Origin: a phage
Strand: one strand, 5' to 3'
Sequence record: PX655591.1
Length of the DNA stretch: 38,819 nt
The notes beneath the pieces were generated by a model that made no database searches, was not told the DNA's origin, and worked only from the letters and a program-made list of their open reading frames with translations. A program made the position numbers and the translations under genes. Shown here in pieces: positions 12,442 through 15,498 of the stretch (position 1 is its first letter; each line of letters opens with the position of its first letter).

Positions 12442-14454
12442 ATGGACTTAAGTAACATATATGGGTCTGACATCGAGACCAACGGTCTCCTTGATACAGT
12501 CTCCCAGTTTCACTGTGGGGTCCTGATTAACGCCGAGTCGAATGAGACCCTTAAGTATGGGGTAGCTCCGATGGTTGGTATCGTCGGTGGCTTCAAAGAG
12601 TATGTGCGTAAAGTGGAAGAGATTGCCGCATCGCCTGATGGTATGCTGGTATTCCACAACGGTATCAACTATGACGTCCCAGCTATTGACAAACTGAAAC
12701 GTCTGTACTTTGGGAAACGTTTTAACTTCCCGAAACACAAGATGATTGATACCTTGGTGCTGGGCCGCTTGATGTATCCAAACATTAAGTTCTCAGACAT
12801 GGGGGCGGTGAAAGCTGGACGTCTTCCACCTAATATGATGGGACGCCAGTCTCTTGAGGCTTGGGGCTATCGTCTCGGTGAGATGAAGGGCGAGTACAAA
12901 CACGATTACGTTGCCAAGTGCAAGGCCGAAGGTATCGAATATAAGGCTGGGGACGAATGGTTGTTCCCGTCTCAGGAGATGCTGGACTATAACGTTCAAG
13001 ACGTTGTGGTCACACTGGCGTTGTTCAAGAAGTTCCTGACTGACAAGTATTACTTCCAGTCTGAAAAGTTCGCTTTCGAGCAGATTTATGCGTTGCGTCT
13101 GGAACATGATGCTGCGTGGACCTGTGCGAAGATGGAACGTAACGGCTATCCGATGAACACAGAGATGGTCGAAGGCTTATATCGTGAACTCACCATCAAA
13201 CGTGCGGAGTTACTGGACAAGCTGCGCTCTACTTTCGGTAGCTGGTATGCACCGAAGGGAGGCAAGGAGTTCTTCAGACATCCACGGACAGGTAAGGATC
13301 TTCCGAAGTATCCGCGAGTCGTGTACCCTAAGGTCGGTGGCATCTTTAAGAAGCCGAAGAACAAAGCCCAACGCTTAGGTCTTGAACCTTGTGAACTCGA
13401 TACGCGAGACACAATGGAAGGAGCACCATTCACTCCAATCACTTACGTTGAGTTTAATCCGGGAAGCGGCGACCACTTAGCGAAAGTCCTGATGGAGCGT
13501 GGCTGGGAGCCTGTGGACTTCACTGACACAGGGAAACCTGTAGTCGATGACGAGACGTTAGAACACGTTAAGTTACCAGACGCAGAGGCTCAGGCTTGCG
13601 TAGAGCTTGTCCGTGAGTATCTGGTGGTCCAGAAGCGCATCGGTCAGGCTGCTGAAGGTAAGAACGCATGGTTGAAACTTGTAGGTCCAGACGGACGTAT
13701 GCACGGTTCAATCAACACATGTGGTGCAGTGACCGGACGTGCGACCCATAGCTCACCAAACATGGCTCAGGTCCCGGCTAACGGTGCTCCATATGGTGAG
13801 ACTTGCCGTGGTGCTTTCGGTGCAGCGTGGAACAAGAAGGATGGTAAGCCAGACCCTTGGATTCAAGTAGGTGTGGATGCTTCAGGTCTTGAGCTTCGTT
13901 GTCTGGGGAACCGAGCTGCTCCGTTTGATGGTGGTGCATATGCGAAGACTGTAGTCGAAGGTGACATCCACTGGGCAAACGCAGTCAACGCTGGGTTAGC
14001 ACCTAACGTCCCACGCGATAAGTCGAGCCACGACCATGATGCTTTCCGTAACAACGCTAAGACGTTCATCTATGCGTTCCTGTATGGTGCAGGGGCCGCT
14101 AAGATTGGACTGATAGTCGGAGGTGGTAAGAAGGAAGGTTCAGCTCTCATGAAGAAATTCATTGAGGGTACACCAGCCATCAAGGACCTCAGGGAAGCTG
14201 TGAGTAATACGTTAATCTCAGACTCTAAGTGGGTAGATGGTGAGAACATCGTGAAGTGGAAACGTCGCTGGCTGAAAGGTCTGGACGGTCGACGCATTCA
14301 CATCCGGTCTCCACACTCAGCACTTAACGCCTTACTTCAGGGGGATGGTGCGGTAGTCTGTAAGCACTGGATTGTTGAGGTAGAGCGTATGCTGGAAGCC
14401 GAAGGATACGTCCACGGCTGGGATGGAGACTTTGCGTACATGGCATGGGTGCAT
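12442..14454 (+). CDS. DNA polymerase (gene 5-like) exon 1, 671 codons, ends ...FAYMAWVH
   Basis: Recalled identity to T7 DNAP including thioredoxin-binding loop KVGGIFKKPKNKAQR; ORF ends exactly before the motif C Asp codon. Confidence 0.95.
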
Positions 14455-15052
14455 TAACATCATGGTGCACATTAAATCTGGTGAACTCGGTGAACTCCTA
14501 ATGGGACAATACCGAGCCAAGCCATAGGGAGGATGTATGAGAGGCAAGAAGTTAATTCTTGAGGCCACTGAGACTGGCTGCATAATCCCTACGTCACATA
14601 AATTGAATCAGGATGGATACTTCCGAAAGAGGACTAACGGTGTCCTTGAGATGTATCATAGAACTGTATGGATTAAAGCTAATGGTCCAATACCTGACGG
14701 TTTCGAAGTAGACCACAAGTGTCGTAATAGAGCTTGTTGCAACGTCGAACATCTACAAGTATTAGACCGGGACTCACACTTAGTCAAGACCAACAAAGAG
14801 CGATACGCTGCTAGGAAGCTAGAAGCACGAGACTACTGGGTAGAGACTGGGTGTACTGGAACGAAGTTAGCCGAAGTGTTCAATGTGTCGTTCTCAGCCG
14901 CCTGTGGGTGGATTAGAGAGTGGAAGGCGTAGAGACTATCCGAAAGGAGTAGGGCCGTGGGTGAGATTCCCACGTAACCCGAAGCGCCAGACAGTCACCT
15001 CAAAGACTGATGATATAGTCCGACACTTCCAGTAATGGGAGAATACAGAAAG
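14455..15052 (+). mobile_element. Group I intron (about 598 nt) in the DNA polymerase gene, carrying an HNH endonuclease ORF
   Basis: Exon 1 ends in U that can pair with G of intron GUGCAC (14465-14470); AGACUAU (14933-14939) pairs with AUAGUC (15015-15020) as P7; G at 15052; downstream exon restores DNAP C-terminus in frame. Confidence 0.8.
14537..14932 (+). CDS. Intron-encoded HNH homing endonuclease, 131 aa
   Basis: HNH motif GPIPDGFEVDHKCRNRACCNVEHLQV; RBS GGGAGGA; ORF stops 1 nt before the P7 core element. Confidence 0.85.
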   Translation: MRGKKLILEATETGCIIPTSHKLNQDGYFRKRTNGVLEMYHRTVWIKANGPIPDGFEVDHKCRNRACCNVEHLQVLDRDSHLVKTNKERYAARKLEARDYWVETGCTGTKLAEVFNVSFSAACGWIREWKA

Positions 15053-15208
15053 GATGAGTTACAGATTGCTTGTCGTACTCAAGAAATAGCAGAACGTACA
15101 GTAGAAATTGCTCAACTTGCTATGCGTAAGGTGGGCGAGTTCTATAACTTTAAATGTGTCCTTGATACCGAAGGTAAGATTGGACCAACGTGGAAGGAGT
15201 GTCACTAA
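15053..15208 (+). CDS. DNA polymerase exon 2, 51 codons plus stop (DELQIACRT...GPTWKECH)
   Basis: Matches recalled T7 DNAP C-terminus DEIQVGCRT...GPNWAICH; no start codon or RBS of its own at the junction. Confidence 0.85.
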   Translation, partial: DELQIACRTQEIAERTVEIAQLAMRKVGEFYNFKCVLDTEGKIGPTWKECH

Positions 15209-15498
15209 TGGCTATGACCAAACGTATGCGAGTTTCATTCTCGCTGGGCTCTGTACTGTCTACTGAAGACGTTGAGCACTTCAAGAAGTCTCTCTGTGAT
15301 TTGAGCCGTAAGGTTCTCAATGGTGAGAAGACCACTGGCTTCGAGCGTAAGATGGTCGAGGTAGGCGTTACAGAGGGTCTGGAAGCTGTGGTAGAGCTTG
15401 TCTTTAAGAAAGGCATTGTTGATGGCCTGAAAGAAGACCTGAGTAATTACGCTGACCAACCCAGCTTCGGAGACTTCCGAGTGGAGTTCAAGCAATGA
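15208..15498 (+). CDS. Gene 5.5-like protein (T7 gp5.5 is an H-NS binder), 96 aa
   Basis: Begins MAMTKR as recalled T7 gp5.5 MAMTKK; TAATG overlap with DNAP stop. Confidence 0.7.
   Translation: MAMTKRMRVSFSLGSVLSTEDVEHFKKSLCDLSRKVLNGEKTTGFERKMVEVGVTEGLEAVVELVFKKGIVDGLKEDLSNYADQPSFGDFRVEFKQ

Follow-up and report, generated by a model that had tools for sequence, protein, structure and literature searches.

The DNA polymerase gene of the phage described here is, almost certainly, interrupted by a mobile group I intron of subgroup IA2 that carries a gene for an HNH homing endonuclease (HEG). The phage is a Kayfunavirus (K1F-like, T7-family), the window analysed is the whole 38,819-nt record PX655591.1, and the interrupted gene encodes an essential family-A DNA polymerase. 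The reading rests on the anatomy of the element, its homology, the covariation of its helices, its exact insertion site and its signature of lateral spread. The element is already known: its mechanism, its family and near-identical sequence have been described. An earlier note on this DNA, made from the letters alone, had said that group I introns occur in the polymerase genes of a few T7-like relatives and that this instance would still need characterising. The first statement holds, as DQ111067 gives the polymerase CDS of K1F as a join of two pieces that flank a 'homing endonuclease', and 13a and Bas102 also carry annotated joins. The second does not, given those annotations, the mention of the K1F intron in PMC4925675 and an identity of 99.2–99.7% to the introns of K1F, Ro45lw, CLB_P1 and others. 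The coordinates of all features are collected in Table 1.

Table 1. Features of the interrupted DNA polymerase gene and its intron, by position in the window
Feature	Position	Strand	Description or evidence
DNA polymerase exon 1	12442..14454	+	671 codons, end ...FAYMAWVH; ORF list, Pfam DNA_pol_A 99.2 bits
Group I intron, subgroup IA2	14455..15052	+	598 nt; Rfam RF00028, contiguous intronless alleles, covariation
P1	14449..14470	+	Exon GUGCAU + intron UA (14449–14456) pairs with AUGGUGCAC (14463–14470)
P10 guide CAUC	14458..14461	+	Pairs with GAUG 15053–15056, start of exon 2
P3	14477..14483	+	5′ strand UCUGGUG pairs with CGCCAGA 14985–14991
P4 + P5	14486..14516	+	P4 14486–14492 / 14510–14516 encloses P5 14496–14499 / 14503–14506
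P6 + P6a 5′ strands	14517..14525	+	P6 CC 14517–14518; P6a CCAU 14522–14525
HNH homing endonuclease gene	14537..14932	+	131 aa; Pfam HNH_3, phrog_6254, T3 gp5.3 similarity
P7 5′ strand GACUAU	14934..14939	+	Pairs with AUAGUC 15015–15020; guanosine-binding helix, pseudoknot with P3
P7.1 + P7.2	14940..14980	+	P7.1 14940–41 / 14946–47, GAAA loop
P3 3′ strand + P8 hairpin	14985..15009	+	P3 14985–14991; P8 14992–14996 / 15005–15009
P7 3′ strand + P9 + 3′ tail	15015..15052	+	P7 15015–15020; P9 15026–15030 / 15037–15041
57-aa ORF 'gp5.4 / DNA polymerase'	15035..15208	+	Fortuitous in-frame ATG in P9, then exon 2
DNA polymerase exon 2	15053..15208	+	51 codons + stop; DELQIACRT...GPTWKECH*

The insertion site

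The polymerase reading frame ends at a TAA (14455–14457) directly after U14454, the last base of exon 1, and resumes in frame at 15053, motif C's catalytic Asp-Glu being the first residues of exon 2; the coordinates given for this interruption in the earlier note all check out. With 14454 joined to 15053, the gene encodes a 722-aa family-A DNA polymerase whose alignment with T7 gp5 runs from end to end (T7 residues 4–704) at 55% identity. The exact exon-1 protein has no identical entry in the public protein collection. The alignment with intronless T7-family polymerase genes that had been proposed for placing the insertion was run, and the junction is contiguous in intronless alleles. Those of Kayfunavirus read ...TGGGTGCAC followed directly by GATGAG... 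(the last six bases before the junction being GTGCAC), among them vB_Aba_01KA with the site ...GCATGGGTGCACGATGAGCTACAA..., and the T7 allele reads ...GTACAT/GATGAA... without interruption. The His codon is polymorphic, being either CAT or CAC. Together with the alignment to T7 gp5, these alleles bear out the earlier placement within motif C, between its His and the catalytic Asp, exactly at His671/Asp672, which equals T7 H653/D654 and E. coli Pol I 881/882. This H/DE site is common to all 14 introns examined.

Conserved polymerase motifs are targets of inteins as well, so that an intein or another element removed at the protein level, after translation, deserves consideration at such a site. 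This explanation is refuted because the reading frame is closed by the UAA with which the insert opens in the exon frame; there is no in-frame ORF, and the Pfam search returned HNH_3 only, with no match to a Hint domain.

Intron ends and ribozyme core

The intron begins with this UAA and its final base is the omega-G at 15052, the terminal G already noticed before. The exon-terminal U had been predicted to pair with a G in GUGCAC at 14465–14470, and it does so in P1 as the splice-site wobble U14454·G14465, a U·G that is invariant in 13/13 homologous introns. P10 is paired in 77–100% of the cells of the MAFFT alignment; the P10 guide of 13a differs (AUCUCAU) and matches the exon 2 of 13a itself (AUGAGAU).

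P7 is built of the two stretches from which a P7-like core had been proposed (AGACUAU, 14933–14939, and the AUAGUC of Table 1). Its 5′ strand fits the Rfam consensus AGACUA...UAUAGUC and is invariant in 13/13 introns. Both sides have changed in five of the seven pairs of P3, and P4 and P5, paired in 100 and 90% of cells, respectively, have two compensatory pairs each. The P6 CC pairs with GG at 14926–14927, one pair covarying from C-G to U-A, and the P6a CCAU pairs with GUGG at 14920–14923. The Edwardsiella and Klebsiella introns have ACUG/CAGU in place of P6a; this swap was read by eye from the sequences and is left out of the covariation counts, its partner strand lying in gap columns of the MAFFT alignment. 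P7.2 consists of 14952–54 / 14978–80 plus 14956–61 / 14969–74, with four compensatory pairs in its inner part, and is linked to P7.1 by AGUA. P8 is wholly different in sequence in the introns of PT2, MQM1 and PE006, with the hairpin retained, and four of the five P9 pairs show a compensatory change. P7.1 and P7.2, two additional helices that lie between P7 and the P3 3′ strand, assign the intron to subgroup IA2, in agreement with the description of this subgroup in PMC3428280. P3–P9, P7.1/P7.2 and P10 can thus all be placed, and the group I secondary structure on which the earlier note had made its reading depend is recoverable.

Statistical and profile support for the fold

Covariation was assessed on a MAFFT alignment of the homologous introns, with the P6 and P7 helices rebuilt by hand and by comparison. 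Over 13 homologous introns, the hand-built model pairs 92.9% of cells, as against 37–45% when slid controls are scored; both partners have changed in 24 of its 63 pairs, and the covariation score is 0.277 versus at most 0.071 for slid controls; none of 500 shuffles reaches the observed values. These counts are conservative, because MAFFT misaligns P7.2, the P3 3′ strand and P8 in the most distant introns (MQM1, PE006 and SU7), where the unpaired cells are artefacts. The core helices P3–P8 and the P3/P7 pseudoknot show the covariation expected of a group I intron. An independent minimum free energy fold recovers P1, P3, P4, P5, P7.1, P7.2, P8 and P9. The core with the ORF deleted has a thermodynamic z-score of −1.81, a modest value that counts against the assignment.

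The covariance-model search that had been suggested supports the assignment in part. A permissive scan of 14380–15130 matched the full RF00028 model (positions 1–253) at 14445–15042 with an E-value of 2e-7, but its 35.8 bits lie below the gathering cut-off of 50 bits, and a scan of the whole window at the gathering threshold gave no hit. A sub-threshold score is expected, because the core is interrupted by a 396-nt ORF and lacks P2. Scores for relatives are 35.7 (K1F), 37.9 (13a), 61 (the same-site homologue of MQM1) and 58.9 (an ORF-less relative in Arash). Moreover, cmscan put the insertion of the ~400-nt ORF behind a false GAGGCCA and not ahead of the true AGACUAU at 14933, and because of this misplacement its alignment of P6 and P7 is wrong and the real P7 5′ strand is lost. 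The low score would fit an intron that has decayed and lost the ability to splice, so that the polymerase gene would be a pseudogene and the DNA would come from a metagenomic fragment or a defective phage. We regard this as scarcely credible. K1F and Ro45lw, which grow in culture and form plaques, share every base of the ribozyme segments with the phage studied here, no core helix is broken and the reading frame of the HEG is open; the truly degenerate ectopic copy in NS1 looks different, its P7 being mutated and its P6 carrying an insertion.

The HNH endonuclease gene

The HNH endonuclease ORF that had been reported inside the intron was confirmed by Pfam HNH_3 (57.6 bits, cut-off 24.8, E 9e-16) and by phrog_6254 (E 1.5e-46). 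It sits in the P6a loop, between the two P6a strands, with a Shine-Dalgarno sequence (GGGAGG, 14527–14532) just after the 5′ strand. Its last codons (E-W-K-A-stop, 14918–14932) double as the 3′ strands of P6a and P6, right next to P7. By its HNH motif and sequence similarity, the protein belongs to the I-TslI / T3 gp5.3 family, whose invariants are H60, N64, N69, H72 and Cys residues. An AlphaFold2 model from the single sequence was unusable (mean pLDDT 35).

The small downstream ORF and annotation

The earlier note had described exon 2 as having neither a start codon nor a ribosome-binding site. The former is not so, since an in-frame ATG lies at 15035, within P9 and 18 nt upstream of exon 2; the latter stands, no Shine-Dalgarno sequence being found upstream of this ATG. 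The annotators of K1F and Ro45lw used the equivalent ATG for a separate 57-aa ORF, and several records list a small 'DNA polymerase / gp5.4'. Such a start would fit a gene that had been split by insertion of the HEG, with the 671-aa and 57-aa halves translated separately and assembling without RNA splicing, and phage genes that work although divided in two are on record (cited in PMC10448857). This arrangement is nevertheless very unlikely here. The ATG lies in the 3′ strand of P9 and changes along with that helix, 7/14 homologous introns lack an in-frame start ahead of exon 2, and in CHRF_10037 exon 2 is directly preceded by a stop codon. As the ATG is not conserved among the homologous introns, it gives no support for separate expression. 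A split would also part the His from the catalytic Asp within a single β-hairpin of motif C, and a conserved, covarying ribozyme would lack a reason to persist. The 57-aa 'gp5.4 / DNA polymerase' is therefore most likely an annotation artefact.

From the interrupted polymerase, gene callers make three products, namely a shortened protein of 671 aa, an 'HNH endonuclease' and a spurious 'DNA polymerase / gp5.4' of 57 aa, a pattern seen in Ro45lw, CHRF_10037, SU7, PE006, DT115P1 and others. The main value of recognizing the intron lies in correct annotation, as this restores a single 722-aa enzyme. About 250 extra nt downstream of the intron in CHRF_10037 were considered as a second intron and turned out to be one more small gene behind gene 5.

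Splicing model and the interlock of endonuclease and ribozyme

Splicing of the group I intron would proceed as in experimentally studied relatives, and cleavage by its endonuclease is likewise modelled on them; the ΦI and W31 introns are said, from the work of Bonocora & Shub in 2004, to self-splice in vitro and in vivo, and mobility is on record for them as well. The transcript would fold into the P1–P10 ribozyme, and exogenous guanosine bound at P7 would attack the phosphate after U14454, presented by the U14454·G14465 wobble. The freed 3′-OH of exon 1 would then attack after the omega-G, with P10 (CAUC/GAUG) aligning exon 2. The product would be the mRNA for the 722-aa polymerase, with a junction reading ...GGGUGCAU/GAUGAGUUA..., and translation of unspliced RNA would end at the UAA that opens the intron.

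The HEG and the ribozyme are physically interlocked through the bases shared by the end of the HEG and the 3′ strands of P6a and P6. A synonymous AAG to AAA change in the Lys codon of the HEG covaries with C to U in the P6 5′ strand, so that coding and pairing constraints act on the same bases. Tentatively, and as something we consider possible rather than probable, translation of the HEG may unfold the catalytic core while the folded core buries the end of the ORF, the two states being mutually exclusive and forming a built-in switch. If this is true, endonuclease synthesis and maturation of the polymerase mRNA would exclude each other on each transcript.

Probable homing and the signature of lateral spread

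Compared with K1F, the ribozyme is identical at 202/202 positions and the HEG at 391/396 (five substitutions), whereas the adjoining exon 1 positions 14351–14454 are 88.5% identical and the genomes 92.6% over 87% of 25 kb; this contrast between the intron and its flanks is significant (Fisher p = 3e-10 and 6e-12). The boundaries of identity lie at 14409–14433 and 15103–15133, from which short co-conversion tracts of about 20–80 bp are predicted. The intron is carried by a minority of related genomes, with presence/absence polymorphism among close relatives, and homologous introns occupy the same His/Asp-Glu site in at least five phage lineages (Studiervirinae, other Autographiviridae, Grimontviridae, Gordonclarkvirinae and the unclassified MQM1). 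Next to an exon only ~88% identical to that of K1F, the ribozyme matches its K1F counterpart at every position, and this contrast points to recent homing. The HNH enzyme would cut or nick intronless polymerase alleles near the insertion site in mixed infections, and recombinational repair would copy the intron and short flanking stretches of exon into them. T3 gp5.3 reportedly cleaves intronless polymerase genes at the I-TslI position (attributed to Bonocora & Shub, 2009). With a near-identical intron in polymerase genes that are ~10% diverged, the element would be a clear case of ongoing homing.

Comparison with known systems

HNH endonucleases in group I introns of family-A polymerase genes also include I-HmuI and I-PfoP3I (of SPO1 and Pf-WMP3), but their insertion site is Pol I 674 versus 881 here (PMC3428280). 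Sequence and profile searches of the PDB with the HNH protein gave, amid noise, a weak and non-significant match to I-HmuI only (1U3E, E 0.11). T3 gp5.3 is 51% identical over 95 aa that include the HNH motif (E 4e-34); its gene is free-standing beside an intronless gene 5, whereas the HNH gene here is intronic, and it lacks the C-terminal ~37 residues (TGxxLAExFGVSFSAACxWIREWK) found in all intronic versions.

The ΦI and W31 introns, home of I-TslI, are likewise of subgroup IA2, with an HNH ORF in P6a and the His/Asp site of motif C (Pol I 881), according to PMC3428280, in which Bonocora & Shub 2004 is cited only as their first description. PMC8136825 cites I-TslI as an enzyme that nicks DNA at a site with a 9-bp core. 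This type is represented here by the proxies 13a, Bas102, mtp4 and Sal_R1S, and the likeness to ΦI and W31 themselves is drawn from the literature description and from these proxies. The 13a-type intron shares ~80% nucleotide identity over 593 nt and 76% protein identity in the HEG; it differs by compensatory changes in P5, P7.2 and P9, and in the P1 loop/P10 guide, which here fits the Kayfunavirus exon 2 (UAACAUC, versus AAACUAUCUCAU in the 13a type).

The closest known system is the K1F intron itself (DQ111067 / AM084414; gp5.3), which has the same insertion site, the same length of 598 nt and identical ribozyme segments, and whose HNH protein is 98% identical to the 131-aa protein here; what differs is the host genome, along with the five substitutions in the HEG. 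Introns of the K1F type occur in Ro45lw, CLB_P1, CHX131 and several 'Kayfunavirus' records as well.

A DNA polymerase gene interrupted at motif C

The sequence is a nearly complete genome of a T7-family phage of the genus Kayfunavirus, and for its first 25 kb the best match was coliphage K1F (87% of that query aligned, at 92.6% identity). Its DNA polymerase gene is split as an earlier note had described, with coordinates that sequence, ORF and junction checks all upheld: the reading frame stops after ...AYMAWVH at TAA 14455-14457, and a T7-like C-terminus resumes in the same frame at 15053. When 14454 is joined directly to 15053, the product is 722 aa long and aligns with residues 4-704 of T7 gp5 (55% identity, gap-free at the junction). 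In that alignment, the break lies between His671 and Asp672, corresponding to T7 His653 and Asp654; the Asp, as the earlier note also held, is the catalytic aspartate of motif C in family-A polymerases (His881/Asp882 in E. coli Pol I). An intein is excluded, since the insert opens with UAA. At 15206-15210 (UAAUG), the polymerase stop and the start of the following gene, which encodes a gp5.5-like H-NS inhibitor, overlap.

About 190 records in the phage collection align with 80% or more of a synthetic exon 1 + exon 2 query, and intronless alleles align across the junction in one unbroken stretch, as in Kayfunavirus vB_Aba_01KA (...TGGGTGCAC/GATGAG...) and T7 (...TGGGTACAT/GATGAA...). These alleles fix the insert at exactly 14455-15052, the 598 nt originally proposed, and because the bases on one side of each boundary differ from those on the other, this placement is not shiftable. 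The His codon (14452-14454) is CAU in 14/14 intron-containing alleles, as required for the P1 U·G pair; among intronless alleles, it is CAC in vB_Aba_01KA (447-470 of that locus), the only close Kayfunavirus allele compared, and CAU in T7.

Structure and conservation of the group I intron

The Rfam model RF00028 matched 14445-15042 over its complete length (positions 1-253, E 2e-7) at 35.8 bits. This is below the curated cut-off of 50 bits, so the default Rfam scan of the whole window reported no match. Low scores are typical of this ORF-bearing lineage (K1F 35.7, 13a 37.9 and PT2 39 bits); the same-site homologue of Aeromonas phage MQM1 scores 61 bits and the ORF-less relative of Salmonella phage Arash 58.9 bits. 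A secondary-structure model made by inspection and comparison placed P1-P10 except P2, which is absent, and the presence of P7.1 and P7.2 assigns the intron to subgroup IA2. The hallmarks first read from the sequence all found their place in it: the exon-end U pairs with G of the GUGCAC guide within P1, the P7 strands pair exactly as proposed and the terminal G is omega-G. An unconstrained MFE fold of the ORF-deleted core independently recovered P1, P3, P4, P5, P7.1, P7.2, P8 and P9, with a modest z-score of -1.81.

Features of the interrupted DNA polymerase gene and its intron
Feature	Coordinates	Strand	Remarks
DNA polymerase exon 1	12442-14454	+	671 residues, family-A, Pfam DNA_pol_A; ends ...FAYMAWVH
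DNA polymerase exon 2	15053-15208	+	same frame as exon 1; DELQIACRT...GPTWKECH, stop
P1	14449-56 / 14463-70	+	U14454·G14465 wobble at 5' splice site
P10	CAUC 14458-61 with GAUG 15053-56	+	
P3	14477-83 / 14985-91	+	
P4	14486-92 / 14510-16	+	
P5	14496-99 / 14503-06	+	
P6	14517-18 / 14926-27	+	
P6a	14522-25 / 14920-23	+	
HNH homing endonuclease ORF	14537-14932	+	131 aa; in P6a loop; GGGAGG upstream at 14527-14532
P7	14934-39 / 15015-20	+	
P7.1	14940-47	+	
P7.2	14952-80	+	
P8	14992-15009	+	
P9	15026-41	+	
omega-G	15052	+	

With the intron alone as query, blastn found it in 71 phage records. The comparison set comprised 13 non-identical introns, every one at the same His/Asp-Glu site, from Kayfunavirus, Teseptimavirus/Teetrevirus (13a, Bas102, mtp4 and Sal_R1S), Aeromonas phages PT2 and MQM1, Vibrio phage Vp_R1 (Grimontviridae), E. 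coli phages PE006 and SU7 (Gordonclarkvirinae), Edwardsiella phage DT115P1 and Klebsiella phage RCIP0053. When the ORF-deleted cores were aligned with MAFFT, 92.9% of cells were paired under the intron model, against 37-45% with the 3' partners slid by 1-3 columns. Both sides had changed in 24 of the 63 pairs, a level matched by 0/500 shuffles, and the covariation score was 0.277 (<=0.071 in the slid controls). No variation occurred in the splice-site U·G pair or in any of the six P7 pairs, and compensatory changes fell in P3, P5, P7.2, P8 and P9; these counts are conservative, because MAFFT misaligns P7.2 and P8 in the most divergent introns.

The chief rival reading has the polymerase halves translated separately. 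Exon 2 is preceded by an in-frame ATG at 15035, from which some records annotate a 57-aa ORF as 'gp5.4' or 'DNA polymerase'; the earlier note, which saw neither start codon nor RBS there, was thus mistaken about the former and right about the latter. However, this ATG lacks a Shine-Dalgarno sequence, belongs to the 3' strand of P9 and is missing in 7/14 homologous introns, CHRF_10037 has a stop codon immediately before exon 2, and a conserved covarying ribozyme would serve no purpose under separate translation, all of which makes this alternative very improbable. A spliced group I intron is the supported reading: every testable defining feature of the ΦI/W31/K1F-type IA2 introns was found except an Rfam gathering score, and catalysis is predicted.

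The introns of Vp_R1, MQM1, PE006, SU7, DT115P1 and RCIP0053 also bear HNH ORFs, and the phages themselves come from several lineages that are unrelated (Grimontviridae, Gordonclarkvirinae, 44-kb Autographiviridae and unclassified phages); apart from that of MQM1, their records show the polymerase in fragments that no join connects. Those of MQM1, DT115P1 and RCIP0053 have a P2 hairpin, unlike the window intron. In Arash (OQ632216.1, 749-1020), a family-A polymerase is interrupted elsewhere, before ...LLYGATVNS, by a related IA2 core with only a short hairpin-embedded ORF and no HNH ORF, and the halves are labelled 'DNA polymerase nu' and 'DNA polymerase theta'.

The HNH endonuclease gene

The intronic ORF matched Pfam HNH_3 (57.6 bits, cut-off 24.8) and PHROG 6254 'HNH endonuclease' (E 1.5e-46), in agreement with its initial identification. 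Its product is 98% identical to K1F gp5.3, 76% to the 13a intron ORF and 51% to the free-standing T3 gene 5.3 product (E 4e-34), and the HNH-motif His/Asn/His and the Cys residues are invariant in nine homologues. Intronic versions share a C-terminal extension of ~37 residues that T3 gp5.3 lacks; T3 carries its gene downstream of gene 5, where the window phage has no such gene. Single-sequence structure prediction gave no usable model (pLDDT 35) and a PDB profile search nothing better than a weak match to I-HmuI (E 0.11), so the fold assignment rests on sequence families. The last codons, GAG-UGG-AAG-GCG-UAG (14918-14932), form the 3' strands of both P6a and P6, with the stop codon adjoining P7. 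RNA and protein therefore both constrain the conserved C-terminus WIREWK(A/V); its Lys codon shows a synonymous AAG-to-AAA change that covaries with C-to-U in the 5' strand of P6.

Signature of mobility

Compared with K1F, the two ribozyme segments are identical (202/202) and the endonuclease gene nearly so (391/396), whereas identity is 88.5% in the last 104 nt of exon 1 and 83-89% downstream of gene 5; Ro45lw gave the same pattern. Tested against the 254 nt of exon 1 next to it, the intron stands out with Fisher p = 3e-10 and 6e-12. From the intron, the closest mismatches in the exons are 21-45 nt away on the upstream side and 50-80 nt away on the downstream side, distances that fit the size expected for short co-conversion tracts, and only a minority of ~200 related polymerase genes carry the intron. 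The identity contrast and patchy presence are consistent with, although not proof of, recent lateral spread by homing.

That the intron has decayed is unlikely, given that cultured phages carry an identical ribozyme; decay is seen in Citrobacter phage NS1 (MN715150.2, 814-1479), whose degenerate copy has a mutated P7 3' strand (AUACUC) and a ~10-nt insertion in the P6 region. That copy, with ~58 nt of polymerase exon 1 and a 3' flank that is not exon 2, lies near the left end of the record, far from the phage's intact intronless polymerase gene (15081-15391), and is explained either by ectopic insertion or by a chimeric assembly.

Relation to known introns

The T7-like phages ΦI and W31 provided the first description of this family, whose features PMC3428280, summarising Bonocora & Shub 2004, gives as subgroup IA2, Pol I site 881, an HNH ORF in P6a and the endonuclease I-TslI. 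I-TslI is cited in PMC8136825 as a nicking enzyme whose core site spans 9 bp, and the T3/T7-like case in PMC10448857 as 'collaborative homing'. The window intron is the K1F gene-5 intron: GenBank DQ111067 joins the K1F polymerase from two pieces, between which it places a 'homing endonuclease', 13a and Bas102 are annotated likewise, and PMC4925675 mentions the K1F intron. The original observation is confirmed and its interpretation supported, but two points need correcting: the ATG at 15035 and the status of an instance said to need characterising, which is essentially already described. Its value lies in annotation, as one 722-aa polymerase instead of three fragments, and as what would be a tidy example of recent homing. 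Bonocora & Shub reportedly found in 2009 that I-TslI and T3 gp5.3 share one cleavage position in intronless polymerase genes and that the ΦI intron is mobile in crosses. In direct comparison, the window intron is 80% identical to 13a-type introns, which serve here as proxies for those of ΦI and W31.
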